A stretch of DNA of 64,000 nt, from contig JAYWIR010000039.1 of NCBI GenBank assembly GCA_036172245.1, positions 496,001-560,000 on the forward strand, read 5' to 3'. The DNA comes from Raillietiella orientalis. Its lineage: Eukaryota. The notes below the pieces were generated by a model. That model saw nothing but the letters and a program-made list of their open reading frames with translations, was not told where the DNA came from and did not search any database. Of the stretch, positions 16,160 through 63,233 are shown one piece after another (the stretch's first letter is position 1; each line of letters opens with the position of its first letter). The position numbers and the translations under genes were made by a program.

Positions 16160-16220
16160 ATGGAGGCATTAGAAAAACGGTTGCATTCGAAAGTTGATGA
16201 TTACAAGAATCTTCAAAAAG
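16160..16220 (+). CDS. PFDN6: PFDN6 coding exon 1
   Basis: ATG at 16160; MEALEKRLHSKVDDYKNLQK; donor AG|GTAATT at 16221 (phase 1). Confidence 0.88.
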
Positions 16221-26704: not shown

Positions 26705-26766
26705 TCAGGCAACCGGCTGCGGCGGGATTGCTGGGACGGCCGAGCGGGCGTGCCTGCGGCGCGGAT
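26705..26766 (-). CDS. TGFBR3: TGFBR3-like last coding exon (cytoplasmic tail)
   Basis: Acceptor ttcctgttcttccAG; (D)PRRRHARSAVPAIPPQPVA then TGA. Depends on a 44-nt intron being spliced. Confidence 0.6.
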
Positions 26767-29700
26767 CTGGAAGAACAGGAACTGCGCCCTGACCGGGTGT
26801 CCCTCGCTACCTGTCCTGCGCCTGATGAACCAGATGAGGGCGGAGAAGGCGGTGCCCAGGAGGAAGGCGGCGAGGGCCACGGCGACGAAGAGGTCGAGGG
26901 AGGGGCTGGCGGCGGGCTTGTGGCGAAGGGCGGCGACCCAGGCGGGGCCGGCCACGAGGTAGTCCACGGCGGAGAGATTCGTCCTGCGGCGCTCCCCGGA
27001 GCACCCGGGGCAGCTTCCCAGTCCGCTCCTTGAGGCGCAAATGCCCAGGCGGCACTGCACGTACAGGGGCCACACGGAAGGCCATCGGTCGGGGACCTGG
27101 GAGGAGCAGATGAGTGAGCCAGTGAGCAGATGCCACCTGCTGCTGCAGACCCCTCCCCCGGTCCCGGGACGCGCCGGGGAGGGGGATCGATTGAGAGGAG
27201 ACTCACCCGGAAGCCGAAATGGTTGGCAGCGGAGCCGGGGGAAGCGAAGACGTGGACGGGCCGCAGGGGGCAGCCCCCGGAGAAGAGGCGCCAGCTGCGG
27301 TCGCGGGGCACCTCGTCACTGGTCGAGTTGCTGATCCAGCAGTCGTCGATGCCGATATGCACGCCGGGGGCTGGATCTGGGGGTTGCGGCGGGCCGGCGG
27401 TCCACGGGCACCCCGAGGGCGGCTCACCTGGCTCCGTGGAGACCTTGACGAAGACGGGGTCGCCCGGAAGCAGCGGGACGCGCTCCGAGAGGCGTTCCGT
27501 GTGACGCTCGTTGACGGATAGCTCCATGGAGTAGAGCGAGGTCTTCCGGCGGGGCGTCAGGAAGGCGTGGTCGCTGCCATCCGGTCCAGGGTCCCTCCGG
27601 CCTTCGCAGCGGAAGGCCACGGCCACGTCCGTGCAGTCGCCGGAGCGCAGCCACAGCTCCTGGCTGAAGACCGTGGCGAGGCGTCCCACCCGGGCGCCGC
27701 AGCGGTGCAGGTCGCTGGCGACGACGGCGTGGGTGCCGTTTGAACGCGCCCGGCATCGCGGGTCACGCAGGGTCAGGAGCTCCGGGCGCAGGCGCAGCCG
27801 CTGCAGCAGCTCCAGGCGGACGGACACCTCGACTGACTGCTCTCCGCAGAGCACGACCACGCCGTCCACCAAGTCGAGCTTCCGTCGAGACGCGGAAGAC
27901 GGAGGAGGGGGTCTCTTCCTCCTGCGGAAGGGGTCGCCCCCCGTCGCCAGGGCCGCCTCCGCGGCGGGGGCACCGGCCCGTAGAACCACCCGGTTGGCAC
28001 CCGCAAGCTTGGCGTACACCGTGGGCGCCCCATAGTCCGATGTGACCTGCACCATCAGCGGCCCGAAATCCTCTGGCAGGAGCAGCAGCTGCACCTCCCT
28101 CCGCCCGGGCAGTGCCTCCGCGCGGGCGTCCGTCGACAGCTCGCTCCCGCGGTCCGCCTGCAACCGGGAATGACGAGAAATGATAGGAGGAGGACTCCAG
28201 TGCGAAGAGCGGAGGCGGGCAGGGCGGGATGCCGCTTCCACCCGCTGTCGCCTTAGAAACCGGGGAAGCGATGGCAGATGCCGTTTCCTCTTTCCCCTCC
28301 CTCTCTTGCCCCAGTCACCCTACTTCCTAGTGGAGGAGGCGGGCAGGCAGCTGCAGGGCGGAGACTGCACTCGACGCCCGAGGCGTGCCCACCGGGACGG
28401 TCATGCGAAAGAGGAGGAGGTAGGTGAGAGCGCACCCACAGGAGACTGCGAAGTCTACGCCCGTGGCCGCAGCTCCCCGACTAGCCCCGACAGGGGAGCT
28501 AGGGTCCAGCTCTGAGAGGCTGCCCTCGGGGGAAGCGTCCCGCCCTTCCTTGCAGCCGCTCGGATGCTGGAGGCAACCGGCGTCCCCTTGGAAACGGGCG
28601 GACGTCCTTCGGGAGATCTTTGCTCACTGGACGCTGTAGGAAGGGAGAGTGGGCAAGGGAAGTCCTGTCTGGGAGACGCCAGAGGGCGGGCGGGCGGGTA
28701 TGTGCAAGTGACCCAGAACAAGGGGTCTTGGGTCACCTGCACATACTCAGGGGAGGGTGATCCCGGGCCCTTCCGGGGGAGAGGGGACGGCTTACCAGGA
28801 CCAGGAGATGGCCGCTGATGTTATCGGTGAGCACCTTCCACAGCATCTTGCGGTGGGACTTCAGCACCAGCGTGATGTTTCTGGACCGAGGCACCGGGGA
28901 CTCGATGAGCACCGTCGACACCGCGTCCCAGGGTTCGGAGGGGGGCTGGAGCAGCTCCAGCACGTACACGTCGCTGGAAGCGCAGCTCAGGTCACCATCC
29001 CTGATCAGCACCATTCGCGCGCCTCGAAGGGGGTCTTGACTGCCCACGAGCAGGTCATCCCCTCTAGGTCTCGCCAGCCACGCACTGACGGCTCCACCGC
29101 GTTCCTGCAACTCTAGGCGGTCGGTGGCACCTTCTCCACTTTCCCGCAGGAAGACTTTGGGGTCGCGCACCCTTCTCCGTGGGTTCCGGACGATACTCGG
29201 CAAGGATTGACCCTTCCCTCTACGTGCGCCCCCTCGCGCGCGCGACCGCTTCTCCCCGGGACCTTTCTCTGCTTTCGCGCACGCTCCACAGAGGGGAGAG
29301 TTTGCGCACCGCGACCCGGCAACTACGGAGAGACCGGCAGAGGACACTTGCGTTCCGCGGAGCGAAGCCGCGATCGGGGAGGTCTTCCAGTCGCCCTCCT
29401 AAGGCATCTCGGGCTGAAGAGGAAGTTCATGGATTTGCACGGAGCTGCGCGAGCGGAAGGGCCGGTTTTTCCGGTTTGTTTCTGACCACCCTCCGAGCGC
29501 TTCACCCTTCTTGGAACCCTCCCCGACGGTCAGCTCCGGTTGTGTTTTCCGGGGTCACAGCTTCCTGCGAAAATCCCACCCTGCCCTCTTCGAGGCGCTG
29601 CCCCTTGACCTATCCTGTCCACTCCGGGGATCGGCGGCCACGCACTTCATCGTCTTCTTCCCTCCGGGAGGGATGCGCAGACAAAGACACGATGACCTTT

Positions 29701-32700
29701 CCACCCGACAGGAAGAAAGTGGAAGAAGGGAGAATCGCCAACACAGGGGGAAGCCTCTCTATCCCCATCGGCGAGCAGGAGGAGGGGAGTGACGAATCGG
29801 AGCTCGCCGCGGCATCCCACGAGAGAGCAGCACCAGGCAACGCCCAACAGGCGGAGGACCCGCATGCGTTCTGCCGTCAGCGACATGCGTTGCGGGGTAG
29901 CAGACACGATCCCGAAAATTCGGCTGCCAGGGCATCCGGCGTCCCGTGACCCAGGAATGCACCCGCGAGGGCGGGGACCCAGATGACTCCCTGAGCGCGT
30001 CCTCCAGTAGAGACGTTGGGTTCGACCCGTTTGGCGCTGACCTCCGATGCGTTCGAGGTGGCATCCGCTGACACGGGAGCCACCTCTTCGTGCTCCCTCC
30101 GCGTGCGCGCGCCCGGCCCTCGGACGCGCGAGGACGAGCTCCCCCCTCCCCCCCAGCAGCAGTTCGGAGACGGGTCTTCCAGACCCGTTTCCAAACCGGA
30201 GTCTTCCACCGCGCCCCTAGTTGGAATCCCGCTGGGGTGTTTTACCTGCTTCCGACGTCCATCCGGTTCGGGTAGACGCAGCCCTCGATGGGTCTTTCCG
30301 AGATGATCTGCGGCACCACCAGAGGCGTGCGCGCAAGGTTTTTCAAATCGCATTTTTTAGGCATGTCGCTGTCTAGACGGGAGGAGGCAAAAAATAAAAA
30401 AAAGGGGGTGAACAGGTGAGAAATGTTAGCCACAGTGGTCGAAAAAACAACAAGCAAATAAAGGGAAAGCTCAAAGAAGAAGAGCACCACCACTTACTTG
30501 TGCCCACGTGGAGGACAAGAGAATTGGCCTCGTCGACCACTGTGTAAGACGTGATGGCTCCGAACCTGTGCAGGACCTCCGAGGAAGACAGAGACTTCCT
30601 GTGCTTGACGGAAAAGTTCTTCCAGATGCTGTCCTCAGACAGCTCGACGTGGGTATTGTGCTAGGGAAGAGCATCAGCCCTCAAAACCCGAAACGACGGT
30701 GCACCCCAAGCTGCGCGCGAGCAACCACCGCCTGGAGCTGCCGAGAGCCACGGAAATCGTGCGCGGGGGCGCGTGCCGCCAGAAAGACCGCGCGGTGCAG
30801 ATCGTGTGCAGTCCGTGGGCCCGTCGGCGAGACAGCCGAACAACCAGGTTCCCGCGGGAATGCCAGGCGCGGAAAGAACGAGGGTCCGAAAGCCTCCGGT
30901 TTGCCTGAGGGGTTCCCCCTCCTCCCTCCTCATCGCGCTCTGGTTCGCGCCTCAGCGTTGCTGATCGAGGACCAGCATGCTTGAGGGAGGGTGGAGTGGT
31001 TCGCAAGACCGGCGCGAGACGGGTCAGCTCCTTGTCGCTTTCGGACGGTGCCGCAAGAACTCTCCCCTCCGCGGGACAGGCCGCGGGTGCCCGGGTCGCG
31101 TGGAGCCTCGCTCCTTCCTCGCCGGAACTGCTGCGGGTCAGCTCCGTGCTCACGCCTCCGGTTCCCCATGGAAACTCGCGCTCACGCTTCTGCGATGGGC
31201 CTCGACCGGCGGGCTGGGAAGTTAAGGTGGCTATCTCCGGAAGGGAGAAAGGACTGCGCGAGTGGAATACGGGCCAGCTCGCCGAGGCTGCGATCCCGAG
31301 TACACGATCCCATGGACTCTTCTCATGTGGCAAGCTGCTGAATGTTCCGTCGGAACACCTGAAGTGGCCGCCGGTTCTCATGGACACCCGCATCCTCCCC
31401 TTGAAGTGGCAGGAGTCGGGGCTGTTGCTGCTGCACTAGGGTCTCCCGCGCAACGCCCGCCGTCATCACTGGATGCGGGTGTGTGTGGATCCCAACTGTG
31501 CCACATGCGAGGAGCGTGAATCCCTCCCCCACCTGCTAGTGGACTGTCTTGCCCTCCAGTCTCTCCAGGAACGCTTTGCCGCGGCCCTGAGAACCCCCGG
31601 TGGCAACTCCAGGGACGCTCTCAAACTCCTCTTCGTTCGCGACGCTCTTCGGCCAGAGGCTTCCCTGTGCTGCCTACGCGGGATCGTCGCTGCATGGAGC
31701 AAGGCAACAGGAGGACCCAGCGATGAGGATGACATCCACTTCACCGTTCAATTCATCAGGAGGGCGACGCAATGGCCCCACCTGGACAGGAATATCCAGC
31801 AAGGCCTTGCCAGCATCCTGCAGAAGATGCATAGGACCGCCACCAGCAGAACATGACCCCTTCCCACACCCTCCCAAAGTGTATTTATTTTTATTTTATT
31901 TATTTCTTTTTATTTGTCTCCTCCTCTCTGCTGCCGTGGTGAACCGCGCCGGTCTGCGAACCGATGATCCGAAAGGTCCCCATAAAATTGTGCGTGGCTG
32001 GACCAGCGGTTCGACCACAGTTGTCACGAAATGTTTATTTTGGATTATAAACGCCCCTAGCGCACCCGGGTGGGAATCGACCGGCGGGGTCGTCTCCTGA
32101 GCGGACCTAGCAGTGCAGCTTCCGACCGCTCCGTCCTTCCTTCCTTCGCTCCCCGCCTCCGACCCTCTCGACGGCGACGTCCGCTCCGAAGAGATTCGCG
32201 GCGCCTGCGAGGGAAGGATGGCTGCGCGCGGCCTGAATGCTCGCAGAGGCCAGGCGACGTGACTCTGTGGCGATTCCTCGACCTCGGAGCCGGAGCTCCC
32301 TACTAGGTTTCCACGACGTGATCCCTCCTCCCACCCAGTCGGAAAGGTCCAGGAGTCCGCATATCGACCCACCCACGCACGCACACACGAGGAGAGGAAA
32401 GAGGCCACATCCGCAGGAAATCCGTACGGTAAAAGTCCCGCCCACGTGTCGACACCTACCGTCGAAGAAAGAAACAAAGCGATGCGAAGAAGAAGAAAAA
32501 AAAAAAGGGACACAAACAGAGCAGCAGCGAGAACGGGGTAGTGGACATCTACGGAGATGAGCCGGAACGCAAACATGCCGATGGCCACTTTCCTTCATCA
32601 GAAGACGCCTGAGCAACCTGCTTCCGGTTTCCTCAGTTCACTACAGCACGACCCCCAGCCGCTGCAGACCCTTTTTACATAGTGACGGGCAACGAACACT

Positions 32701-35700
32701 GCCACCCAGGATGGATACTGGCCAACGGATAAAGATGGAATGCTGATTACTTAAGGTCAGTGGTAAGCCTTGCGCAACTCTCGCTATCTGCTAGCCCAAG
32801 GAGCCCCTTTTCTATCGAATCTTCCCTCCGCGTTCTGGACGCTGCGCCTTCGTGCATCCCCTTCATAAATCTTCCCTTCCGTCGTCCTTCAACCCATCTG
32901 TGAGAACGAAGATTTCGGGTCCCGAGCTGCTTCCTCATAGTGCACGTCTCTCCACCGCTCAGAAATCTCATGACGTCACGCGACTTGCGGATGTCAGGAT
33001 CGGCTTGGGAGATTCATTTAGTTGCAGGAACGGCAGATGCGTTCCGTGATAAAATGCTGACGCCACACACTCTGTAGTAAAATGCTGGATCCATAGTGAT
33101 GGCTAACGTTATTAAAACCGATGAACAAACGATGCTGAGTGAAATCAAACGCTTCGCAGGAAAGTTCGACGCACTTCCTCAGGGTTATCAGTAATGTGTG
33201 CTCGCTCGATGCAGTTTACTCGAGCATTTACCTGCCTCGTTGAAACTTTAATAAAATCGCATAGGAAACTGCCGAGAGAACAGAAACGAAGAAATCGCAA
33301 GCACGCGGGGCAGCAACGCGCTGAGTTCTTCGTCCGTAATCGGCCATTATGTAATTCTTCATTGCTCCCAGCTGGTGTGAGTCGCTTGGCTTCATTACTA
33401 CCTTTTTCTTTTTAAATTCTGTCTTCCCCTAAAACATCATCCAACCTCCGCCACCACAACGCTTAAGACGTGGTTAGGAAGCTCCCTCCTAATTGCCGGC
33501 CTAAGAAGGCCAGAGGACTTGTCGAGAAGACTGCAGCTGCTAGAATGGTCCCTCAAGAAGGATCACTATGCGTGAGAGAGAGCACCCGACACCAAAGGAA
33601 ACACCAAAAGACGAAAGAACGGCGCACAATGACATCGTATCCATCCTTTTTTCGAAGCATACAAAAAGGCAGCAACTGATTTCTCATTGGCAACGAAAAC
33701 ACCACTCCCATCGAGTTTTTCATTTGTTTTTTTTTTTTGCATGCTAATGTCAGCCTTCTTCCGTCATGAAGACAGCGACATTAGAACACACTGCTACTCT
33801 CAAGAGAACAGTTACGTCGACGAAATCCCCCATTAAAAAACCATCCAACCGAAGCTCCTGACAAATTCCGGCTTGGATGAAATGGGAAGGTCCTCTAGGA
33901 GGAGACGTTCGGATCACTAGTGGCGCGGGACGCCACACAGGGGCCGGCGAATAGCCAGGGAAAAGCACCTTTCCTGGAGAAACCTTTCTGCTCCGCAAGC
34001 GAGGACATCCGATCCGAGGTATTCCTACGTCCACGCTTGCTCAGCCGCTGGCCAGGATGCTGGGAATCCTGCACTTTGCCACGGGAGCTCCGCCTCTGCT
34101 CGGAATTCGGTGCTTCCAAAACCGTTCTGGCGCGAAAAAAACAAAAACAAAAAAAAAAAAACATGAGGCAATGCGGCGCAGCTTCTGGTCTCGGGACAGC
34201 ATACTTTCGTTTCTGCGGTCATCCTCATCCATTCTGCGCGCTGGACCTTGTATAGGTCAAAGTTCATCGTCAGCGAGTCAAAAAAAAAAGTGCGTGCTCG
34301 CGTCCCGTCTCCGGCCATTCGCAGAACGTCACAAAAGAACCACAGAAGGCAGCGGCGGAATTTCCGGAAACGATTGCTTTCCGGGAAACGGGAAATTGGC
34401 ACAGCCGGAGGTGGAGATCGCGAAGAGCTCGCTGCAGAGCTGCTTTACACGCAGCTCGGGGGCACGACTTGGCCGATGAAGGCCGTATGGGCAACGACGC
34501 CAAGGTCGGCGCGTTCCGACCACGCCCGGTCAGCTCTCCGACTCGTAATCTTCCTGTTCGCCGCAGAAGCCGTTACAAGAAAACCACTGCCTGCGCTGCA
34601 AGTGCCCCACCAGTCCGAGGTCTCGCAACCGTCCGACTCGTTCCCAGAGAGCAACGCGGCAGCAGCACTGACGTCACGGCTCCGAGGATCCAAGTGCGAG
34701 GCGAGGGAAGAGCGGGGCACCCCAAATCGGAAGCCGCTTCTTCGAGAAATCGGAGAAGCGGATTTTGGTGGCCATCGGGCGGCTCGGGAGGATGTGACCG
34801 GCAGGAGTGCGCGAGAGATGAACGCGACCCCGAATTCTGCTGCGAACTCTGATCGCCTAGTGCGCTGCAGCAAGGGGAGAGAGATGAGAGGTCGCAGTCG
34901 CAGTCTTGGAAGTCGCGAAGCCATCCACCTCGGAGCGGTGATACTCACGACTGAAGGATCCTTCCACGTTCCCGATGACGGACGTTCCAGATCGAAAGAG
35001 CGAGCAAAGGGCCCCGATTCCCGACTGACTGCGAAAGGCACGGCACAGCTGATGGTCGTCACTTCGAAGTGGCATGACCAGTGACTTCGGCTAGCCGGGA
35101 GCCATTGGCAGGGGGGAGGGTGCGCCGGGGAGGCTGCGTTCCGCATCTCTGAACGCATCCTCCCGATGACTCACACGCGCCCGGGGAAATCTTCTCCGAG
35201 GGCGCTGGCCCGGAAGCTTCCCGAGTCGCTCGGGCGCCTCCTCTTCCGGCCAGCAACCCTTCTAGGGATGCCGGGAGACTGCAGCGGGCTTCGGCAGTGA
35301 ACCAAGTTCGCGACCTTGCGCTTCGGTTCGGCGCTTCGCCGGAATCCTACGCGCCCACTCGGGAGGGGACCTCTCGAACTCGCTCGCCGGAGGGTCAAAG
35401 GGGCTCGCCCCTTGGGAAGAACGGAAGCGCCGCCCTGCTGCTGCTGCTGCTGCGCTTGTCTCTGCGCGCTGCATGAGCGGGCAGCGCGCCAGCGGGAGGG
35501 AGCCCGGCCGATCCTCGGCTTCTCCTCGCGACGCCGACCGTCCCCACCTGGATGGCGGAACATGCGGAAAGGAGAGGTCTGCCCACGCATCCACCTGCGC
35601 TAGGGCAGGCCCAGAACCTGAGCTAGGGAAATTCACGAAGCTCCTGCCCGTCGCCGTTCGTCTTCTCGCCTGCCGGCGATTCCGACGCCCCACGCTTACC

Positions 35701-38700: not shown

Positions 38701-41700
38701 CCCAGACCGTCGGACTCGATGGGCGAAACCCATCGGGGTGTGGGCTCGCCCCAGAGAAGGTGCCGCTGGACGGCAGGGTCATGCGCGACGGTAAGCGGGC
38801 GCGGTCGAGCTTTTCTGCCTGAAGCCGCCGCTGCCTGTCCTGGTGGTGGCTGCGAGTGCTCCGGCGAGGCCTCAGAGTCTGGGGCGTGGAGGAGGACGCC
38901 AAGGGAACGGTCTCTGGGCGCGGACCAGCGATTCCGCATTCCCGAAGGTTGGGAGCGACTTCCGGAAACGCGGAATCTCCAGGCAAGTCTGCCTGCGCTC
39001 TTCCGCCCACTTTCCCCGATTGCGCCCCATCTTCCCCGTCGCCCTCCTCTCGATTCCAGGTTGCGCTCTCCTCACGACGCCTGGGGGCATCTCGTCCTGG
39101 TCCCGCCGGCTACGCGGAAGTATCTGCTGAAGATCGGCGCGGGATCTCCGGCACGGCTGGATACGAAAAGTGGCGCGAACGGGAGCGGGACCGGTATGGG
39201 AGGCATGGCTGCGTGGGTGACATCCGCGCGCGGTGCTTGGTCGGCCAAGCGCCGGCGCCGCTGCAGTGCAAGGGGCGTCAGCTAACGGAGAGCTCCGGGG
39301 ATACTGCGGCGTCGGCGGCGCCCAGCCGGGAGAGCACCGGGAGCAGCGCGTGAGTTGGCGCGCATGGAGGACCACGGAATTGTCTTGAGTCTCCGGGACG
39401 GGACTCGAAGAATCGGTCCACGATGGTTTGTTTATCCGCATCCGTATTGGGAAACTTGGCGGGATCCACATTCCGGTCTGGAGTGCACACAGATGCGGGA
39501 AAGGGAAACCCGGGAATACCCTTTCGCGCCCGCCGACCGTCGCGGTCCTGGGCCTCCTCCTCGCCGAGATCCGTGGGAAAGCCGCCGTCCGGTGGTCGTC
39601 CGGTGGCTGGGGACGGTGGATGGCCTGAGCGGCGTCCGCCTCCGGTGGACGGTTGCTTCGGCTGGCGACTAGCCCGCCGCATCCGTCGTTGGAGGATTCC
39701 GCCTCGTGCGGCCGCAGTCCTGCTGCTGCCGCGTTCCAACAAACGGCACGTTCCCTGCGATCTGAGGCCGCGTTGCACGAGACGCGCCGCAGTCCGACTT
39801 TGGCTTCATCCACCCTTCCAGGAACAAGGGAGAGCAAACGGGATTCGACAGGGATTCCAACCGGACAGGGGGAGCGCAACAGATGTGCAGGCGACCTGGC
39901 CCCCAGCGATGTTAGTAACGATTGCTGTGACGCCCCGCAGGACGAGAACAGGACATCCGGATTCGGGACGGAGAGCGGGCGAGCGTGGGGATGAAGTGTA
40001 AACTGAGAGCCGAACGTTCCAGAGGCTAAACGTAGCAGGAGGGGTTGTTGGCGGAAATCCGAGAAAAAAATCTAGGATACGAGAGAACGCTCCAGGAGGG
40101 CTCACCCGGAGCGAGGGAAGAGGCGGTCCTAATATTCCGGAGGACGTCGTCCGGAAAGGCTCCTGCAAAAGGAGCAAGCGCGCGCCCCGCACAGCATGCG
40201 AGGCGGCAGAGCCAGCTGCAGCTTCGGGAGGACTTCGGAACTTGGCGTTGCTTCGCGTGCAACGGGGTCGGCGGGGGGCACCGGCTTCTTCATGGGAGTA
40301 GAGGAGAGCAAGTGCACGAGAGCCGATTCCGAGGTCAACAGGGCACTGAGCCCAGGAGCGCCCTGGCAGTGCCCAGGGGCGCATGAGCGCCGAGGACGGG
40401 CTGGGCTTTGGCGGGGCACGCTTTTCGAGCACAGGCGGACCACCACGTTCTTGTTCGGGTAACGAGCAGCGCAGCACGAAGCGGCACGACCACGACCAAA
40501 CCGCCTCCAGAATCTGCGAAGGTGATCTCGCCAAGAAAAAAGACGACGGTGAGATGAGATTCATGATCCATCATCAACAACACTACAGAGGTCTGCCTTC
40601 TCCAGATTCGCGGCAAGTGGGTCACCTGGACCTCTTCGGCAGCACGAAGCGCTTCCTTTCGAATCCCATCCTACCCGGACTTTCCCCTTCTTCAAGTCGG
40701 TGGCGCATTCCAGCAGCAGCCTTTCCGAAGAAGGAACGCGCGCTGATCGCCCTGCGGATGAGCACACACTCGTCGCCCAGCAGCTCGAAGAACGCTGAAG
40801 AGCAGCGAGCAGATGTTGGGGGAAAACGTGCGCGCAACTCGCTCGCGGGCCATCACTCTCACAAAAAATCGCCTCCAAGCTTGTGGGAAGCTCTCCCGAG
40901 CGCTGAAGGATACGGGGAGAGAGCGATGGAGCAGGCATAGGAAATGCGGCAGAGTACAGAGGGCTTTCGTGGCGCCGGGAGAGGAGTCGGACTTTTAGCC
41001 AAAGGCCGTGGACAGTTCATGACGGTCGGAACCTCGAGACGACGAAAAGCAGGTGAAGGGTTAAAGGAAGCAGAGTTGAATCAAGAATCAGATCCATGTC
41101 ACGCATAAAAGGAGCCTCGTGCGAGTTCCCGAGTGAACGACTGATGCGAGGTAAAAAGTCACCGTTGACAGATTTACGAGAAGCGACGCTCGCTCCTCCT
41201 GAAATAAAATTTAGGAGGAAAGACCGTGAGGGGAAAGTGGAATTCTGTCCAGCTGGCACCCTTTGGGCAACTCAACAAGCCCGGGACATACCAGAGTCGC
41301 ACGCACAAAGGAGGAGGCTCAATGAAAGAACAAGGAAGCCCCCCAAGTCTACTCACAATCAGCTTGTGGCCGAATGGCTGTACCCGCTGGCTCCTAAGTT
41401 TCAGCTTGATCTTCTCCTGAAACGCAGGACCAGCATATTCCAGCACGAGTATCAGCCTCCCGCTGTACACGCTGTTGTCAATCAGTGGCTTCACGAAGAT
41501 GCTCAGTACGGGCTTAGATCCACGCAGAGACTAAAATGAAAACGGTGGCTGAGCGCATGGGGATTTCTGCAGGGTAGATCGAAGAGAGTTTTTGCTGCGG
41601 AGCACCAGGAACCAATGAGAGATAACGAGAGTTTTCTGGAGCATCGTCAAGGGTTCCTGCTGCACTTCACCGTGAGCTCCGGAAAGGGGGCATTCGCGAT

Positions 41701-47700: not shown

Positions 47701-50700
47701 CACCGCCTCTCGCCTTTCTGCCGGAGCAGAGGAGGCTCCAGCTGTCCCGAAGATGGCCGCTTCTCATCTTCGGGCGGCAGGACAAAGTTTTTTCCAACTT
47801 GTCCGGCGGCGCGCTGAAGAGCGGTGAGGAGGCACTGCGTCGTCTCCCCCTACCGGACCCCCCGTTCCGGGGAACGTGGGGAGAGGGGAGGAGAGGGAGA
47901 GAACGCGAGGAGAGGCGGGAAAACGAACAGGAGGTGGGCGATCTTTGCAGCCCCTCGAAGGGAACGCGAACCCCGCCTGGCTTCCTCCGCGCAGGAAGGA
48001 AGTCCCTGAGACCCGCACAGAAGTGGAAGAGCACCATTGCTCCTCCGTGCTTCCCGAGCCTGGGACTATGAAGGGAGTGCGTCCCGAGGAGGGATGCTCG
48101 TCTGCATTCCTCTCTCCGCTCTCGAAGACGGTAAGAGTGCGGCTTCCCGTTCGCCCCCGCCGCGCGCCCGCCTCCCCTTCCTCCCTCTGCGGCTTTACCG
48201 ATCCCGTATCTCCCCTACCGCCAGGATCGCATTTGCATGAAAGTTCGATTGAAACGGGAACGGAGACGGGGCGCATGCCTCTCTGTTGTACGCTGGGAGA
48301 CTTCCGGGACTGTGGACCATGCATCGCTGCATCCGAAAACGGGCGAGGGAGCCACGCGATCTTCGCTCGTGAAGCAGCCGCGGGCGAAGTCGCAGCTCTG
48401 GGCGCGCCCGTGGGAACCTCAGAAAAAGATCTGCTCAAAGTGCGGGCGCTGCGTACGTGCCCCCGGGACACCGCTCCGGCAAATCTCTCCGCCTCGGAGC
48501 GCAGCACTCCCTGTTTTTCCGGGAACGGCGGCGCGACTTTCCGGCCGCGAGGGGGCGCAGCAGCGAAGTCACGGACCAATCCGGGGCAACCTTTCCGATC
48601 TTCCTCCCGTTGTCGGGGGCAGCAGAGCTTTCCGCTTCCTTCGAGGCGCTTCGGGAATCGCTGCTCCCGGAAAGGACCGCCGCTCAACGTGGACCGCGGA
48701 AGCGCGCGCGGAAACGAGGCCTGTGCGAACCTGCCAGCCGCCACTTCGCCACCAAGCAAGTGGCCGGTTCCCTGCTCATGCCTCGGGGGAGGTCAAGGTC
48801 AAGAAGACGCTGCTGCACGGCGTTCTGGAGTGGAGCGGATGCCCCCGCGCCCACGGTGCGTCTCCTCCCCTCCGCCTTCCCACGACGCCTGCTTGCAGGA
48901 GGCGCACTGAAAGGGGACGATCGGTGGCTCAGTGTTCATGCGTTGACGCAACCATTCCCACCCCCTGCGATGGGCGCCACACCTGCGCGGATCCACGTCC
49001 TCTCAGCTATGAGAAAACCCCACCATCGGTCTCCTGGGCACTCCCCCATCATCGTATCCCCATTCCCTCATGAAAACCAGTAGCCACCTTCGGCCCACCC
49101 GCCTATGTCACCAGCTGTCCCACGGCGACCACCAAGGCGGCGGCTTTCCGCTTGTCGGTGAAAGGGAAGAACGAAGAGGCTGTCTGCCTCCCGTCCGCCG
49201 GAAGGAGAGGCCGACCGTTCCCACTGTCCGCGGGGACGGTTTCCGACGTGACCTGAGGAGACGACACGTCGGTCTTGAGGGCGCGTCGCCCGTTCGCACG
49301 CTCCCGCGACCTGATGCTCTCCACAGCAAACGACGAGCAGGGGACGTCCGATCCTTCCGGCTGCACCGCGGTTCCCCTACAGTCTCTCCCAGGCCCCACG
49401 GAGCTGCTGCAAGGCGCTGATCGGGCACGCGCAAGCCCGGAGCGGTTCCAGAAGCGGACGCACATGTGCAGGGCTGATCCGCGGTCGCAGCGCGACAGGG
49501 AGGGATGCCGGAAAGGGGGCAACGGGGAGGAGGACGAGCCTCCCGAGGGTTCAAGGAAGGTGGGGGGAAAGAGGAGAGGGCAGTTCAAGGAGCGGGGAGA
49601 ACCCGCAATGGGAGACGGGAGAAGCGCAGTCGGGAGAGCGGGGGCGACCGCTGCTGTTGAGCACCCGTGATCTGCACACAGAGCGCCCGTGGCGCGGGAT
49701 TTCTGGCGAGCACGGGAGCCATTTCGCCGCCCGCACCTTCGGCAGGATAGCGGGGGGCTCAAGGGGTCACCACCAGGAAAGGGGACGCGTGGCAACCCTG
49801 CTGGCCCCAAAGGGTGCCGACCGGAAGCGACGAGCTCGCCAACGGAAGGGCGGTCCGGACATTGGAAAGCCCCCTACCAGGCGCGATGGGAGGGTCCCGC
49901 CGGGACTGAGGCATCGCCTACGCGGGAGAGGTCATCGTGTAGGAAGTGGAGAGTAAGGAGGTTCGGCAGGGTGACCCCTTCCGCCGAGACACAATCTGCA
50001 CTTCATCCGGGGCTTTACCGAGCGCGTCTGGCAACCCGCCCTGCAGGGAGACGATGCGCGTTCTGCTACGCGGTGAGTCACCACTTCCGGCACGATCGCC
50101 CCTCTCCCAAAGCATGAGAGGAGGGGGTGCGGGCGCAACGGGCCGCGCCCCGCTGCTGACCCCGCCGCGATCCCGCGGGGGTCAACGACTTCCCAGGGGC
50201 CAGCGGGTGCGATAGATTGCCTGACGATCAGCGTAACGAAATCAATAAATATCTGGCGATTCTCGAAAATGACTCCGGATGGTCCAAGGAATCATCTTTT
50301 CCCCCTCCATTCCCTGGGGAGGTTCTTCCCCACAGCCTGCGTGGCATGCCCAACCCTGCCGCAGGCGAATAACTCCAAAGACCCGGACCCAACCGTGTAG
50401 AAGTGCAAAGGGGAAGAGCTCTGTCGCAGCGAAACGGCAGCTTTTTTCAGCCTGAAGCAGCCGGATGTGGCCCCGGCAGCGAAGGATGCGATCCTTCAGC
50501 CGGGCACGCTGGGATCCTCGGCGTCCCGGAAGGGCGGGTACGTAGCGTTCTGGACGACGCATGGTGCGCAGAGCCACCGGTTGGTTTCGGCGGCCGGAGG
50601 CGACCCGGAGCGACGCGTTCGCCACCCTGCCTCTTCCTCTTCCCTGCCCTCCATACCGCGTTTCGCCTCTACCCACTTGGAACAATACAGCAGCGGGGAA

Positions 50701-53700
50701 AAGGGGCATGCCGAAGAAGCCCTGGAAGGCGGCGCAGGCACGAGTGCCTACTTGCCCTGGCGCCAGAACGGCAGGACGAGTGCTCCCTCCCCCCTTCCGC
50801 CTTTATTGGCCCTTGACGCGTACCTCCTCCCCGTGCGTGCCGCCCACGCTGTTGATCCGGATGTGATGGACTTCCTGAGATCGCTTGGTGACGGCGGCGC
50901 TGAAGCAGCCGGAGGCGTTGAGCGTAATCACGTGTTGCGCAGACACCAGGGGGCTGCTCAGGTTGGTCTGGGTGATGCACAGCACTCCATCTAGAAGAAA
51001 GGGAGGGGTCGATCAGGGGAGAGGACGTAGACACGCGCCGGTGCAGGGAGGAGGAGGAGGAGGGGGGATGGAAGACGGTGGAGATGCAGATCGACGAGGA
51101 ACAGAAAAGAATGGATGGTGGTGACGGAGCTCGTGGTGAAGGAAACGAGGAGGAGGGGAGGAAGAGGAAAGGAAGAAGAGAAGCTCGCTGACCCACATGA
51201 TCGCGGTTACATAAGGGGAAGATCTCGACGACTCGCCCGAGGGAGGTGGCCCCAGGAGGACCGGGAGAGAGCACAAGGGAGAGGTGCGTTCTCTCGAAGC
51301 GACAAGAGCAGTCCCGGGGACGGTTCACAGATCTGAGGCGTTCCCAGTCTCGAGTCCGGCGAGCTGACGAAGTCCCGGAACTTCACCTCGGGCGGAGTGC
51401 ATGTCCCGCTGACAACTAGCGGGAAGGAGGAGCAGAAGTCACCACGTTCTTCATCTCCGCGTCCGCCCCTGAGGAGACTCCGGATGGCGCTGACCCCGAG
51501 GGCTCCTCAAGTGGCTCGCGTCCTCTCGTATCATGGAGTCGTACGCAGGTAGGAAGAGGGGTTTGCGCCCACCTCTAGGACCCCCGTAGGACTCTCCGAG
51601 CGGACTTTGGTCCCACCCGCGCGGCACACGCCAGACTGCGGGGAGTTTCTGGACAGCGTCATCGGGCGCGAAGGGAAGGAACTGGCTGAGGACCAGTGCC
51701 GAAGGGCATTCCAAGTGAGAGACCGGGGTCGTTTCCCGTCTGAAAGAGTACTAAGAGCTACCTGGAAGCGGGTGTAGGTTCGTTTCGAAGCGTCCCTATT
51801 TCGCCTGGCGGCCGAGAGCCACGACGCGTCTCCCCCGCGCGCGAAAATGCCCTCGGCGAATCAGCGGCAACCAATAGGGCTGTGGGGAGGAGGCAGCCAT
51901 ATGAACCTTTTCCTCCCGCGGTCTGTTGGACGCAGAAGCAGGCGCGCGGGGAGGCTGCAAAAGCGAACCCGCGGGCGAGCCACAAGAATCGCGAAAGACG
52001 CCGTCGCGCATGGGCGGCTGCTGGGGGGAGTGGGGGGGACCCCCGCTGACGTGACGGTTAGCAAGGCTCCCCCACGGCGGAAGGAATGGGGCGCTGCGCC
52101 GTCCGAGTGACCGAAAAGATTGATCCGTTCCTGCTCCCAGGAAGAACCTCGCCCTTTGGCTCGCGGAGCGAACCCCCACTCAAGAACAAAAGGGACCTGC
52201 AACAATCCGGGTGAACGCGTCCGGAAGTCTCGACACGTCTGCGCGCTGGGGCACGAAGGGAACCCACGCCGCACCCTCCCCAGTGACGCGGGGGAGTAAC
52301 TGCACAGCAGGGTTGTGTACCCCGCGCTGGCGGCATGACGTCACGGTTGGAGGGCGGCAGGGCTCCTTCCCGTGGAACCGTTCCAAGAAGTCCCACATGA
52401 CAGCTCCGAGCTCCCAACGCCTCTGGCAACATCTCCTCCCGCGCGCGTTCGGGAGCGAACCCCGAGAGACATTCCATCTGGCTGCCTCCCAGGGTCGAGC
52501 GAATTCCCGAAAGAGCCACCTACGAAGGGGGTGAAACGAAGAATAGCAGAGAGATCGACGGGCGCGCGAACGAGTCCCGGTGGAAAAAAGGAGATGCCAT
52601 GGATGACGCAGGCGGCCGCATCTCCCTGGACCGGGGGAGTTTCGGACGACTACCGACGAACGGAGATCAAGGGCAGCCCCGAGGAACGTCGGAAGCGCCG
52701 GAGCACTCTTCGCCGGTCACGTGACCACGCGGGTAGCGACGGAGACGCCGCCGGCCGCGTGCCGCCGCTCCGTGCGAGAACGACACCTCGGGCGAGCGGC
52801 CGCCGCATCCCTCCCAAAGAAGAAGAATCTCAAAAGGCGAGTGCGACGGCGAGCCAATCCTCAAGAGAAAAACAAACGGGTGGGGGGATCGGAAAATAAA
52901 AATCTTTCCCGCAACCCCCCTTCCCGTTTCGCTTTTCCCACTCCGGTGAAGGGCACGCGTCCTTCTGCGCTCGTCGCGTGCGCGCGGAGAGGCTTCTTCA
53001 CCCGCCGCCGTCGCCTTCCCCGGGGGTTCACTTCTCCCCTCCCCCCCCCTCCCCAAAGCGCTGTCGGGCCCTCATCCAGCAGCACGTCATGCGTGCTGCG
53101 TGAGCCATGAAGCAGCCCCAGCGACATTCTCGGCTGGCAAACGCCGCCCGGGAAGCTGTGGCTCATCTCCTCCGCCATCCGTCTTCGTGTCCGCGGGCTC
53201 CACCTTCCGCCGCAGAAACCCTGCGCGCTGAAATGCCCCAGCCTGTGCGCCTCGAAGATGCGAAAACGCCCCAACCGGCTTCGCCCGAAGCCTCTCCCCT
53301 TGCCGTTCGCGCTTCGTCCTTCCCTTCCTGTTCTTTCCACCGGGCGCCTTTCCGGCGCCATGGGTCGCCCGCACCCCCCGTTCTGAAACGAGTGAGCAGT
53401 TTCGAACCGTCCTTCCTGGGAACAGGAGGCCCGCACCCTCCCCATCCGTGGTCTCCAGGAGGCGTGCGGTCGGACATCACGATATGAGGCCGCCCGCCCG
53501 CCTTCGCCACGCCGGCAAAGCGGCGGCCTAGGGCACAGAAAGCTGGAAGACGCGCGCGGGGTCGCACGTCACTCCAAGGGACCCTCTCTTCAGCCCTTCT
53601 CCGGCCCCGAAGCCCGTGTGCGGCGCTCAGCGGGGGGGGGGGCTAACCTTTCTGCAGTACCGGTTACTGGTTGCCACGGACGAAATGGAACCTCCCACAC

Positions 53701-55383
53701 GCCCGCGCCCGCACGAGGCGGACGCCGCACGCAGAAACCCGCGCTGCTTTTCCTTTCTTTTTCTCCTCCTTTCTTGCGGGCTCCATTTGGCAGTCACTCC
53801 GGACTCTGCGCCGGTCGCAGCTTCTGGTGCTGCTTTCACCCGAAGGGCAGGATGCGGGGGACGATGGCAGCACCCCTCAGCTGCCTCCGTCAGGGAGGAC
53901 CCTGGGATGTCCTTCGTTCCCGGAGGACCACTGACCTCGGCGGCAAACGAAGCGCGGGTCGTGCGGAGGCGGTCCCACGTGTCCGAAGTCACAACTGACT
54001 CGACTCTCCTTCAGCCGAGAAGGACGTTCCAGCCGCATCCTGGACCGCAACGTGCCCCGCTGGCATCCTGAAAGCCACTCTTCTTCCACGGCGCACGAGC
54101 GTCGCGGACGACCGCTCCATTCCGAGGAGCCACAGCCCGGGTGCGCCTGCGTCCACTTGCAGGCGGCGAGAGCTGCTGAGCCCAGGTCGGAGACGCCCGC
54201 GGAGCTTCCCTGGCGTCTCGTCCCCACGGCAAGTCCCGCAGCCACCGCGCACGTTCCAACAGAGCGCGCAAGAGGACCGCCGTCCGCCCATTGTGCCGGG
54301 AGAGGATGAAGAACGGTACAGTGGCTGTACCGTTTTGTTCCGCTTCGCCTCGGACCCCGCAGTGAGTCGGGATGAGGAAGCTGTGCGAAGGGAAGGCGTC
54401 CCTTCCTCCCCTCCCTTCACCCTCAAGGGAAGCGGCGAACGCCACCGACCCATGGGGGGGAAACTGCTCGTGTGATCCTCGCAGCTCCGGCGCAACCCGT
54501 GCTTCCATGATCAGACCGGAAGCGGCTCGTAGAAACGGCTGCCCAAAAAATAGGAAGTAGAGAGTAGGAACGTTGCCGGACGACGCGGTGGACCACCTTT
54601 TGTAGCGCGTGGAGAAGGGAGTGCCTTAGCGATCTTCCCAATCTCTGGGAAACTATCGATCAGCCCTTCCAGCAGGGCATTTGCCCCCTCTTCCTTGGAC
54701 CGAGTTCCGGGGACGTTGGTCACTCCGGAGAGAAGACTCTGAGAGGAAGAGGGGTGTTTGTTCCGCGTGCCAAGGAGCGGGCGAGTTTCCAGGAGCGGAC
54801 CCGTCGCCGATCGTGGCCTGGGGATTCCTCCCGAATAAGAAGGGCTGGAGCGCTCAGGGAAGCGAAGCAGAGGAGGAGGAGGAGGATGGTGGGCCGGACG
54901 GCTCCGCACTAAGCTGCGCCGAGGCTGGCGCGTTCCGGAGCGCAGCGCAGGGGTCCCCAAGAAGAGGAGAAGCACGCCCGTAGCCGCGAGCCCTCGCGAA
55001 CCAGAGCGCGGAAACCTGGCAGCCGCGCTGGAGATCCCGGGAGCGCGCCTGCGAGGGCGGCGGGGGGCGGCTCGGATCAGAGCGGGAACCTCCGCCCCGA
55101 CCAGCGATGGAAGGAGGCGCGCGCGCGGCAGCGGCACGAAAGAGCCGCGGCGCCAAGAGTGGCCGGGGGAGGGCATGGCGATGCAGCGGCCCTGAGGGAC
55201 AGCCACGCACCGCCCGTCCGGCAATCCCCGGGATGCCGCCCCAAACAAGCAGAGCTTGTTGCTGCTGTTGTCGCCGTCGTCGTCGCTGCTGTTGTTTTTA
55301 CCTGCATTGCTCTCGGCTTGGAGTGCGGATGCTGACGCAACCGACAGGACGAACGCTATGTAACCGACCCAGATGGCAACCAT
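26705..55383 (-). CDS. TGFBR3: Betaglycan/endoglin-family TGF-beta type III receptor-like protein, ~716 aa: complement(join(55383-55302,50990-50824,41530-41357,30660-30498,29112-28796,28157-27428,27376-27207,27096-26811,26766-26705))
   Basis: Signal peptide; orphan-domain motifs SGCFSAAVTKRSQEVHHIRI (human SGCASRGTTGLPQEVHVLNL), RFGAITSYTVVDEANSLVLHVG (EYGAVTSFTELKIARNIYIKVG), DVYVLEL..RNITLVLKSHRKMLWKV (EVHIIEL..KNLILILKCKKSVNWVI), DYGAPTVYAKLAGANRVVLR; ZP module (LTLRDPRCRARSNGTH..HRCG; IDDCWISN; GGCP; LYVQCRLGIC); TM VAVALAAFLLGTAFSALIWFI (human GIAFAAFVIGALLTGALWYI). GT-AG junctions; exon lengths sum to 2151 nt. The exon-5 acceptor is uncertain. The symbol means 'TGFBR3-like'; orthology versus endoglin is untested. 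Confidence 0.85.
26811..27096 (-). CDS. TGFBR3: TGFBR3-like coding exon 8 (ZP-C end, external hydrophobic patch, transmembrane helix)
   Basis: Acceptor ctcctcccAG; VPDRWPSVWPLYVQCRLGICASRSGLGSCPGC..YLVAGPAWV..LFVAVALAAFLLGTAFSALIWFIRRRT; donor CAG|GTAGCG. Confidence 0.9.
27207..27376 (-). CDS. TGFBR3: TGFBR3-like coding exon 7 (ZP-C)
   Basis: Acceptor aacccccAG; DPAPGVHIGIDDCWISNSTSDEVPRDRSWRLFSGGCPLRPVHVFASPGSAANHFGFR; donor CGG|GTGAGT. Confidence 0.85.
27428..28157 (-). CDS. TGFBR3: TGFBR3-like coding exon 6 (end of orphan domain, linker, ZP-N)
   Basis: Acceptor ttcccggttgcAG; ADRGSEL..DYGAPTVYAKLAGANRVVLR..VVVLCGEQSVEVSV..LRDPRCRARSNGTHAVVASDLHRCG..AFRC..PVFVKVSTEP; donor CAG|GTGAGC. Confidence 0.88.
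28698..28746. repeat. Inverted repeat / stem-loop (18-bp arms, one mismatch, 13-nt spacer)
   Basis: GTATGTGCAAGTGACCCA (28698-28715) versus TGGGTCACCTGCACATAC (28729-28746). Confidence 0.9.
28796..29112 (-). CDS. TGFBR3: TGFBR3-like coding exon 5 (5' boundary and frame uncertain)
   Basis: 3' part is clear: SDVYVLELLQPPSEPWDAVSTVLIESPVPRSRNITLVLKSHRKMLWKVLTDNISGHLLVL, donor CTG|GTAAGC. The frame-preserving acceptor is cctAG (29113-29114); the alternative ttgcAG (29105-29106) is out of phase. Confidence 0.75.
30498..30660 (-). CDS. TGFBR3: TGFBR3-like coding exon 4
   Basis: Acceptor ctcttccctAG; HNTHVELSEDSIWKNFSVKHRKSLSSSEVLHRFGAITSYTVVDEANSLVLHVGT; donor A|GTAAGT, phase 1. Confidence 0.9.
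30980..31915 (+). mobile_element. 5'-truncated non-LTR retrotransposon 3' end (Tx1/L1-like ORF2 C-terminus with zf-RVT), antisense within a TGFBR3-like intron
   Basis: One frame with a single internal stop: ..HLKWPPVLMDTRILPLKWQESGLLLLH*GLPRNARRHHWMRVCVDPNCATCEERESLPHLLVDC.. (CxxC..E..HL..C zinc-binding motif); ORF ends at 31856 and is followed by a T-rich tract. 5' boundary approximate. Confidence 0.75.
36505..36630. repeat. Alternating purine-pyrimidine (CA/CG/TA) simple repeat
   Basis: gcacgcacgcac..cacacacacgtatgtacacacccgtgcgtgcgtg..catacatacgtatgcgcgtacacatat. Confidence 0.8.
41357..41530 (-). CDS. TGFBR3: TGFBR3-like coding exon 3
   Basis: Acceptor tcattttAG; SLRGSKPVLSIFVKPLIDNSVYSGRLILVLEYAGPAFQEKIKLKLRSQRVQPFGHKLI; donor ATT|GTGAGT; 174 nt, phase 0-0. 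Confidence 0.82.
50824..50990 (-). CDS. TGFBR3: TGFBR3-like coding exon 2 (orphan domain N-terminus)
   Basis: Acceptor tttcttctAG; GVLCITQTNLSSPLVSAQHVITLNASGCFSAAVTKRSQEVHHIRINSVGGTHGEE; donor GAG|GTACGC, phase 0. Confidence 0.9.
55302..55383 (-). CDS. TGFBR3: TGFBR3-like coding exon 1 (signal peptide)
   Basis: aagATGg strong start; MVAIWVGYIAFVLSVASASALQAESNA; donor CAG|GTAAAA, phase 1, compatible with the next exon. An upstream acceptor gctttccAG at 55440-55441 implies a further 5' UTR exon. Confidence 0.8.
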
Positions 55384-55959
55384 CTTAGAGTCATCGCTGC
55401 CATAAATGATGCGAGTTCCAGATGAACAAAATCAACGGCCTGGAAAGCATCAACAACAATTGTGAGCGAACCGGTATGATTTCCAGAGGACGTCGGTGGG
55501 GGAGGGGAAGAAAGGGGAAGCGGGGGAAGGGGCAGGAGGGAACCCCTCCAATCAACTCTCACACTCAACAGCGCGAGAGAGTAATCTCCCTCCAGGACAT
55601 CTCCTCCTGCACCTCGACGCTGCCACGGCAACCGCGCGCGTGCAGCAGGAACCGCCCATCCTCCTCCTCGAGTTCGTCTGGGTGCGAGCTGGCGCCAAGG
55701 GCGCGCGACCAGGGCGCGCACTCACTCACCCACTCGCAAAAGCGGAAGCAAGGAAAGTAGGGGGGAGGAGGGCGACGGAAGGGAACAGCCGCGGAGATGC
55801 GCGGCCGCACGCCGATGTCCGCCGCTCTCGGCGAGAGGAAGCAGCACCGCGTGCGATTCGGAGGATCCGCTGGACGCGACCGGGAACGAGTCCGCGCTCA
55901 GGAAAGTGGGGAAGGGGCGACCTTGAATTTGTGAGACGGTTGGCGATAACGGAGCAGCT

Positions 55960-56115
55960 GACATTTCCAGGTGCAGAGGGCGAAGACGGGGAGGAAGGGG
56001 GAGGTAGAGGAAGGGAGAAGAAAAAGAGGAGGGAAAAAAAAAGGAGAAAGAAAAAGGAGGAGGAGGACGTGGGGGAGGAGGTAGGAAGGAGGGAGGAGAA
56101 GAGGAGGAAGGTTCC
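55960..56115 (+). repeat. Polypurine (GA-rich) low-complexity tract
   Basis: About 150 nt almost entirely G/A (ggaggaaggggggaggtagaggaagggagaagaaaaagagg...). Confidence 0.8.
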
Positions 56116-59100: not shown

Positions 59101-59499
59101 TTGAGAGGGAACATCAGCATTCCACCAAAGATTTTTTGGACCAGATCTTCCGGACGCTGAGCCTGCACGCCGGACACGCAAAATAAGCACCTCCGACGTG
59201 AGGGAAGGTCCATCGCAAGGAAGACCTCTCCGTGCAACCAAACGTGTCGGAGGGACAGCTTCAGCGACCATCGGGAGGACTTGACAAGCACCGTCGAAAG
59301 GACGGAGCTTGTGGTGAGGGAACGCTCCGCCGTGCTGCCGCTAGAGAGGTCTTCAGCGGGGATGGTCCGGCGGCGTTCTTTCCCCCTTCTTGACTACTCA
59401 CTTGGCCGCGTGGGAGGAAGCGGTCCGCTCCGCCCCGGTAGCGACGCCCATGCGCCGCGAGACAAGAGAAAACCACCTCGCTCCGTGACGCGGCGGAAA

Positions 59500-62400: not shown

Positions 62401-63150
62401 AGGAAAATAGAACCTTCCTCTCTTCCGAGGGGGGACCCAATCGCGTACCATGGAGCTGATACCGCCCTCGGAGGTGGGGGGCTTCGCTTCTCCAGAGTGT
62501 CGGAAGCGCTCTTCGGAGAGAAATCGGAAAGCGCCCTTTCCGGGGTTCTCTTCAGAGGAGGAAACAAGGAAGGAGAAGTCCTTTGCAGGGTCCCTCCGGA
62601 GAAGAAATTCAGGAGCAGATCCGGCCCTGTGGTCCCACCCGGCCCGGAGCAGATTCCACCTCGCGTGCACACGAACCCAGAATCAGGGGTTTTGCTGGCC
62701 GTGGTCACCAAGAGCATCTCTGTCCGCCAGATGTCACCGGCGTCTTTCGCCCCCACTTCCGGCACTGCGGTGAAAGGCGCCCTCGGCCGCCGGTGGCGCT
62801 CATTGGCTGGGGAGCGAGGCGTTTCCACGTGGCGCGAGAAAGTTCCGGCCATCTTCGATCCATCCCTTTCCGCGGCGAGTGCCCTCCGCTCGCAGCTGCC
62901 CACAGGCTCTTTCGAAAAAGGGGGAGGAAGCGGAAAAGATGCCACCCCATAAATCCTCGAGGCACTTCCCGGGCAGAAGCGGGTGGCTCTGTGGATCCCT
63001 TCCTGTGTCCCGGAAAGCATACCTTGGGCCAGGAGCTGTGGAGGACCTCCAGGGCTCGCGGCGGAGCATGCAGGTGGGGGACTGATACAGGGGAAGGTCA
63101 GCTCCTCGACCAAAGGGGCACGGTGGAACGGCATGACGGATACGAAGGCG
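59500..63150 (-). mobile_element. Highly decayed non-LTR retrotransposon ORF2 (Tx1/L1-like); boundaries approximate
   Basis: Collinear weak motifs on the - strand: ALFDFWEDLEGQL (cf. EFYxxFWxxL), GGDSKLNHATPVFGVDD (cf. KGDxxxLxNWRPISLLNVD), SVHFQK..ARVG (cf. SLDFxKAFDRV), and further 3' VRWSK..RKVGGGG (cf. FxW..GGLG). Confidence 0.4.
60567..60602 (+). repeat. Short direct repeat GTAAATTCCTC x3
   Basis: Copies at 60567-60577, 60578-60588 and 60592-60602. Confidence 0.85.
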
Positions 63151-63202
63151 CAGTCTTCTAACACAACGAACGACCTCTGCATGGATTTTTTTTTTTTTTC
63201 TT

Positions 63203-63233
<31 letters not shown>

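Follow-up and report, generated by a model that had tools for sequence, protein, structure and literature searches.

Betaglycan (TGFBR3) is mostly described as a vertebrate co-receptor for the TGF-beta (transforming growth factor beta) family, and, to our knowledge, an orphan region, a ZP module, a transmembrane helix and a short tail are found together only in TGF-beta co-receptors. The genome of the sea urchin has only one betaglycan gene (tbr3), which has been cloned and whose product was co-immunoprecipitated with the maternal TGF-beta ligand Panda, as described in the available part of PMC11239237, the authors of which suggest that ACVRII is sequestered in an inhibin-like manner. The accessible text of PMC10381214, a review, credits echinoderms with one TGFBR3 apiece, and NCBI assigns the name TGFBR3 to two millipede proteins. 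Here, we report on a 64,000-nucleotide stretch of contig JAYWIR010000039.1 (positions 496,001 to 560,000, hereafter the window), the minus strand of which very probably carries an intact, highly divergent gene of the betaglycan family in the genome of a non-vertebrate animal. The gene, spanning from the ATG at 55383 to the stop codon TGA at 26707-26705, comprises nine coding exons (E1 to E9, numbered 5' to 3' in the gene; Table 1) devoid of any in-frame stop, and it would extend the range of the family beyond the echinoderm and millipede genes.

The spliced product comprises 729 residues and is made up of a signal peptide, an orphan region of two repeats, a ZP-N and a putative ZP-C domain, a transmembrane helix and a 24-residue tail. 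All the exons (9/9) are bordered by GT donors and pyrimidine-rich AG acceptors with consistent phases, leaving 2190 nt open, and the introns measure, 5' to 3' in the gene, 4311, 9293, 10696, 125, 1272, 638, 110, and 44 nt. The GC content by codon position is 0.65/0.50/0.83, as compared with 0.61 in the introns. A first-pass annotation, made from the DNA letters, had proposed a nine-exon gene of 29 kb at this place, and the open exons, the GT-AG borders, the consistent phases and the family-profile match of the spliced protein, described below, all bear it out. The six junction descriptors that it listed, and that it proposed to agree in position and phase with human TGFBR3, are also reproduced in the window (phase 1 after the signal peptide, ..E/ phase 0, ..LI/ phase 0, ..VG./ phase 1, ..LVL/A phase 0, and ..T-G/ phase 1, the slash marking the exon border). 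In contrast, its product of 716 residues is 13 residues short of the one obtained here from the same number of exons. The E5 mini-exon was located via a weak profile match of its reading frame and supplies the first Cys of orphan repeat 2; the model that includes it scores 263.7 bits against the family profile. The first eight-exon model with a longer E6 (733 residues, 227.8 bits) was rejected, being devoid of that Cys. Three E6 acceptors fit the reading frame, of which the chosen one gives no extra Cys, while the two others, leading to products of 738 and 733 residues, were rejected as each of them adds an unpaired Cys. Such a gene, with its nine exons across 29 kb, a mini-exon of 127 nt, and introns as short as 44 nt and as long as 10.7 kb, would easily be split or missed by annotation.

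The family profile was built from nine homologues, none of them from the window, that were picked through E7 alone; their N-terminal parts therefore test independently the exons located upstream of E7. This profile was run against all the 1589 six-frame stop-to-stop open reading frames (ORFs) of at least 20 residues in the window. The ORFs bearing E7, E2, E8, E4, E6, and E5 are its best matches, and every match to an exon-bearing ORF is on the minus strand and follows the profile order (E-values in Table 1). For the spliced protein, the profile returns 263.7 bits, with one alignment in which residues 2-453 of the protein span positions 13-484 of the profile, and the 376 residues N-terminal to ZP-N score 143.2 bits versus at most 7.6 bits in 500 shuffles. 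Deletion of any single exon lowers the profile score, by 6.9 to 121 bits (6.9 for E1, 15.6 for E9, 22.6 for E3, 38 for E4, and 42 for E2; 38-121 for the remaining exons). Analysis with tblastn places the homologues colinearly on E2, E6, E7, and E8, E2 being matched by the homologues P0002, P0004, and P0007, and blastp aligns residues 2-713 of the spliced protein with residues 23-844 of P0002, a millipede protein named TGFBR3. The proposal that the N-terminal exons belong with the ZP exons is supported by the 143.2-bit N-terminal match, the exon deletions and the colinear order. In a phmmer search of E7 against 1.84 billion representative proteins, only nine matches are reported at E<=0.001, the best one at 43.5 bits: TGFBR3-like proteins of turtles and a caecilian, a coelacanth ZP-domain protein, a cobra hypothetical protein, the millipede TGFBR3, and four unnamed transcripts. 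Annotated proteins close to E7 are thus lacking for every species, and neither the host nor its near relatives are represented in this collection. A word-based search with E7 for longer homologous proteins did not return any among 8000 candidates, and a word-based search with the homologue alignment returned four proteins only, all of the millipede group, with neither vertebrate TGFBR3 nor echinoderm sequences.

Table 1. Exons and domains of the betaglycan-type gene in the window. The E-value is that of the exon-bearing ORF against the family profile in the 1589-ORF scan; a slash within a splice-site sequence marks the exon border.
Feature	Position	Strand	Residues	E-value	Content
E1	55302-55383	-	1-27		First ATG of its ORF and hydrophobic signal peptide; ends in phase 1; donor CAG/gtaaaa
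E2	50824-50990	-	28-83	3.7e-8	Start of orphan repeat 1; two conserved Cys and QEVH motif
E3	41357-41530	-	84-141	3.9	Middle of orphan repeat 1; weakest exon; acceptor ttttag/, donor /gtgagt; phases 0/0
E4	30498-30660	-	142-195	3.2e-4	End of orphan repeat 1; ends in phase 1
E5	30246-30372	-	196-237	0.028	127-nt mini-exon; start of orphan repeat 2 with its two conserved Cys; phases 1 to 2; acceptor ctag/, donor /gtaaaa
E6	28796-28973	-	238-297	4.6e-4	Core of orphan repeat 2
E7	27207-28157	-	298-614	5e-25	Orphan repeat 2 (end), linker, ZP-N and the larger part of the putative ZP-C; 951 nt
E8	26811-27096	-		2.5e-6	Last strands of the putative ZP-C (four Cys), stalk and transmembrane helix; ends with RRRT and one base (phase 1)
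E9	26705-26766	-			Short basic cytoplasmic tail and stop TGA; reached over the 44-nt intron
ZP-N domain	27651-27848	-			Pfam match; residues 158-223 of ORF 26526-28319
Transmembrane helix	26892-26824	-	683-705		Within E8

Regarding the orphan region, 135 residues of the ORF that holds E6 (28736-29398) match TGFBR3 in four of their four PDB hits, the best being 9fdy_C (E 0.0049, orphan residues 206-281), and endoglin is absent from the PDB matches of this ORF. A PDB profile was made up of seven invertebrate-type or unnamed homologues, which dominate it, and of the window exons as separate rows; it reports hits with human TGFBR3 (7lbg_D, E 2.5e-87), with the orphan-domain structures 6mzn, 9b9f, and 9fdy (E 2.9e-49 to 2.6e-47), and with the endoglin orphan domain (5i04, E 2.9e-8). 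The own link of the window protein to these homologues is provided by the 143-bit N-terminal match and by the TGFBR3 match of the E6 ORF. The homologues carry PF26060 (TGFBR3_N) in the precomputed Pfam list, the window protein having been compared by means of the family profile instead. Within the orphan region, the Cys pairs 32/56 and 203/227 are equally spaced, and blastp aligns the second orphan repeat of the window protein to the first repeat of P0025; the spacing and this cross-repeat alignment fit two putatively related repeats. The anticipated orphan region with two repeats is therefore recovered at the level of sequence profiles (143.2 bits, and E ~1e-49 with the PDB profile).

The ZP module is mostly encoded by E7. 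The 598-residue minus-strand ORF at 26526-28319 contains a Pfam ZP-N domain (PF23344, 29.5 bits for a cut-off of 24.7), and the ZP-C part of the family profile scores 40.6 bits over the E7/E8 junction, with conserved C-W and G-C-P motifs. When E7 alone is compared with the PDB, TGFBR3 (7lbg_D) comes first (E 6.6e-4) and endoglin second, the third hit being an unrelated chance match. The AlphaFold2 model of E7, calculated from a 12-row alignment, has a mean predicted local distance difference test (pLDDT) score of 59, with values of 77-94 in the ZP-N part and of 40-78 in the ZP-C part, which lacks its last strands (encoded by E8), and low values in the linkers. Foldseek analysis of this model against the PDB reports 17 matches at E<=0.001, the matches listed being ZP modules; the endoglin ZP module comes first (4.9e-8), followed by uromodulin and egg-coat proteins, with low template-modeling scores (TM-scores, 0.20-0.26). 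Endoglin (5hzv, 5i04, and 5hzw), which also comprises an orphan region and a ZP module, is much more distant than TGFBR3 in each sequence comparison (E 0.019 vs 6.6e-4 with E7, and 2.9e-8 vs 2.9e-49 with the PDB profile). A closer kinship to endoglin was accordingly rejected: TGFBR3 outscores it by sequence, and endoglin comes first only when the ZP module is ranked by Foldseek. Kyte-Doolittle windows above 1.6 occur at residues 1-4 and 675-688 only, i.e., in two hydrophobic segments corresponding to the signal peptide, which is predicted from hydropathy after the first ATG of its ORF, and to the transmembrane segment, which aligns to that of the homologues at 26.8 bits. The ZP-N domain and the betaglycan-like transmembrane helix read from the letters in the first-pass annotation are thus both found, the former above its Pfam cut-off. 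The protein contains 16 Cys and eight N-glycosylation sequons, and retains the Cys that are conserved in the orphan repeats and in the ZP module. It also contains eight Ser-Gly dipeptides, one of which (residue 469) lies in the ZP-N/ZP-C linker, as candidate glycosaminoglycan sites judged by sequence only.

Architecture and homology are established by these comparisons, while the function would follow by analogy. The protein would be a type I membrane glycoprotein from which the signal peptide is cleaved, and which exposes an orphan region in which each of the two repeats has a conserved Cys pair. As proposed for vertebrate betaglycan and sea urchin TBR3, its ectodomain may capture a dimeric TGF-beta-family ligand via the orphan and/or ZP-C domains, and the captured ligand would then be handed to the type II/type I receptor kinases, or the type II receptor would be sequestered, the co-receptor itself being presumably non-signaling. 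Activin/BMP-type ligands, as put forward in the first-pass annotation, would be candidates. Alternatively, a protein belonging to the family by descent might act outside TGF-beta signaling, e.g., as a surface protein whose ZP domain has a structural or adhesive role. ZP modules are indeed widespread in extracellular-matrix proteins, the fold matches that come after endoglin are uromodulin and egg-coat proteins, and the tail motifs of vertebrate betaglycan are not conserved. However, the assembly of an orphan region, a ZP module, a transmembrane helix and a short tail points to a TGF-beta co-receptor. Moreover, sea urchin TBR3, the one invertebrate member tested, binds a TGF-beta ligand according to the available text of PMC11239237, and we consider a function outside this signaling unlikely.

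The tail of the putative co-receptor is reached over the 44-nt intron (26767-26810, minus strand), which exhibits a good acceptor (ttcctgttcttccag) in a gene that also has introns of up to 10.7 kb. Joining E8 to E9 creates an Asp codon and, right after the transmembrane helix, the motif T-D-P-R-R-R. The same T-D-P-R-R-R follows the transmembrane helix of the unnamed homologue P0007, and T-D-P follows that of four arthropod-type homologues, namely both millipede proteins and two related transcripts. Since splicing recreates a conserved motif shared with the homologues, the 44-nt intron was accepted; read-through of it was rejected, as T-D-P-R-R arises only by splicing. The ensuing tail is basic, with RRR following the helix, ends with P-V-A, and does not contain any catalytic domain.

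The composition of the DNA bears on its origin. Over its 64 kb, the window has a GC content of 0.576, a CpG observed/expected ratio of 1.00 and a TpA value of 0.47, the CpG ratio ranging from 0.62 to 1.13 over all 16 four-kb bins. Bulk vertebrate DNA is strongly CpG-depleted, and vertebrate introns are usually longer than 44 nt. Because of the CpG ratio of 1.00 and of the homology-supported 44-nt intron, the DNA does not look vertebrate, as had been surmised from the letters. Full-length scores favor arthropod-type proteins (94-117 bits) over turtle TGFBR3L (55-57 bits). In a 13-row tree, which was calculated without vertebrate TGFBR3, endoglin and echinoderm sequences, the vertebrate TGFBR3L-type clade (99/98) excludes the window protein, which also lies outside the group formed by the millipede proteins and two unnamed transcripts (100/100). 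Echinoderm proteins are absent from the nine library matches to E7, and closeness to an annotated echinoderm is hence unlikely. We also considered that the gene could be that of a vertebrate, for instance a fast-evolving TGFBR3L- or TGFBR3-type paralogue from a cyclostome or from a GC-rich sauropsid microchromosome. The best library match of E7 is a turtle TGFBR3L (43.5 bits, 41% over 62 residues), coelacanth, cobra and caecilian proteins are among its nine matches, and the GC-rich DNA together with a G/A/R/P fraction of 0.33 (0.38 in the turtle protein) recalls GC-biased vertebrate genes. Against this origin stand the CpG ratio in the whole window and in 16/16 bins, the 44-nt intron, unusually short for vertebrates, the full-length scores, and the position of the window protein outside the vertebrate clade; furthermore, no annotated vertebrate protein exceeds 43.5 bits against E7 among the 1.84 billion representatives. 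A vertebrate origin is therefore extremely unlikely, and we retain the assignment to a non-vertebrate animal. The gene region has a high GC content, of 52-70% across 2-kb bins, and contains plentiful ORFs on both strands; in such DNA, stop-to-stop ORFs are abundant and mean little alone.

Several observations weigh against an intact betaglycan-type gene. The identity of the protein to every relative found amounts to only 22-26%; its branch in the tree has a length of 1.77, which is long, and it joins three unnamed sequences with weak support (87/91), a placement flagged as possibly due to long branches. The ORF bearing E3 is not significant in the family-profile scan, yet it matches at the right profile position, and E3 is devoid of the conserved Trp of its repeat. 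Taken alone, E2, E3, E4, and E8 did not return any PDB match at E<=10, and E5 returned only a chance-level NDUFS6 match (E 0.11). The orphan fold of the window protein is predicted through sequence profiles, and in the PDB profile the homologues outweigh the window exons. Pfam analysis of the ORFs holding E7 and E8 did not report any ZP-C match (PF00100) at E<=1. The C-terminus of vertebrate betaglycan is a PDZ-binding ending with Ser/Thr at position -2. Such an ending is absent from the window protein, the P-V-A tail of which has no Ser/Thr at that position; the C-termini of the arthropod-type homologues also differ from one another, and the PDZ-type ending would be a vertebrate trait and not necessarily a family-defining one. 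Lastly, the gene model is built from genomic sequence alone, which, with the divergence of the protein, its long branch and the missing Trp of E3, could be taken to indicate an unexpressed or decaying copy, the frames of which are open by chance. To the same effect, no other gene is recognizable in the 64 kb: outside the gene (1-26500 and 55500-64000), none of 128 ORFs of at least 115 residues has a Pfam match at E<=0.001, in a survey that genes with small exons would escape. A pseudogene is nevertheless very unlikely, as no stop interrupts the 2190 nt of the nine exons, the splice sites are canonical and the phases agree, the codon periodicity is strong, with a third-position GC of 0.83 versus 0.61 in introns, the orphan repeats and the ZP module keep their conserved Cys, and each exon adds to the profile score.

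An intact gene being the preferred interpretation, its product can be compared with the known betaglycan-type proteins. Vertebrate betaglycan/TGFBR3 (7lbg, 6mzn, 9b9f, 9fdy, 3qw9, and 4ajv) has the same order of parts, the ZP-C being putative in the window protein, and is the top PDB match for both E7 and the E6 ORF, but with weak single-sequence E-values (6.6e-4 and 0.0049). The solved human chain comprises 787 residues versus 729 here, the linker preceding ZP-N is shorter in the window protein, and the gene of the latter encodes most of the ZP module in one 951-nt exon. The tail differs as well from that of the vertebrate protein, being basic, with T-D-P-R-R-R at the membrane and a P-V-A ending. 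The betaglycan/TBR3 found in Paracentrotus lividus, a sea urchin, is likewise a non-vertebrate betaglycan, the likeness being drawn from its published description in the available part of PMC11239237. The millipede TGFBR3 proteins, P0002 and P0024, comprise PF26060, ZP-N and ZP-C, and exhibit T-D-P after the transmembrane helix as does the window protein, but share only 21.5-22.4% identity with it; P0002 provides the best end-to-end alignment. These two TGFBR3-named proteins of the millipede Chamberlinius hualienensis are paralogues with 54% mutual identity, encoded on different contigs. As for TGFBR3L, E7 finds its best ZP-N matches in reptile, caecilian and coelacanth proteins so named or of this type. 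Mammalian TGFBR3L contains a single ZP domain and is devoid of orphan domains, as stated in the accessible portion of PMC8673766. The turtle TGFBR3-like proteins P0001 and P0015 (822-827 residues) align with the window orphan region (model 52-452 vs 47-439), and sauropsid TGFBR3L may, judging from this alignment, retain an orphan region.

The first-pass annotation had started from the premise that betaglycan is characterized in vertebrates. This premise is outdated by sea urchin TBR3 (PMC11239237) and echinoderm TGFBR3 (PMC10381214), as far as the available parts of these articles go, and by the millipede TGFBR3 proteins. It had also proposed that an orphan-plus-ZP co-receptor predates vertebrates; the existence of such a co-receptor stands, but given the sea urchin betaglycan and the millipede TGFBR3 proteins, it is already on record and its novelty does not hold. 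The window gene extends a known family by a new, highly divergent member and is not a new kind of gene. A literature search did not find any paper on a protostome or non-bilaterian betaglycan among those listed, which is not proof of absence, and invertebrate betaglycan is not mentioned in the available portions of PMC2832003, PMC13187141, and PMC11865472. It is conceivable, although we hold this only tentatively, that the animal of origin is a protostome or a non-bilaterian from a lineage without a described betaglycan. In that case, and taken together with the two millipede paralogues and the unnamed transcripts, the orphan-plus-ZP co-receptor would be at least bilaterian-ancestral, would have been lost in flies and nematodes, and its invertebrate forms would share a T-D-P-(R/L)-R tail motif. 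If so, such a T-D-P-(R/L)-R at the membrane, replacing the PDZ-type ending of vertebrates, would suggest a different intracellular partner. The gene is a candidate for probing the ligands of the ancestral co-receptor, e.g., activin-like or inhibin-like antagonists such as Panda, and its value depends mainly on the animal of origin.

The remainder of the window exhibits few recognizable features: it does not contain any Rfam family, nor any tandem repeat at a score of at least 80. An AT-rich island at 14000-20000 has a GC content of 0.31-0.39, as compared with 0.5-0.7 elsewhere, with a CpG observed/expected ratio of 0.62 in bin 16001-20000, and does not hold any ORF with a recognizable family. 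At 5558-6117 on the plus strand lies an internally deleted remnant of a piggyBac-type transposon. Its 124-residue ORF (5746-6117) did not return any match in a Pfam scan of its own, but shares 47-53% identity with three unnamed PF13843 transposases of 584-588 residues (86 candidates), and an acidic ORF is located just upstream of it, at 5558-5755.

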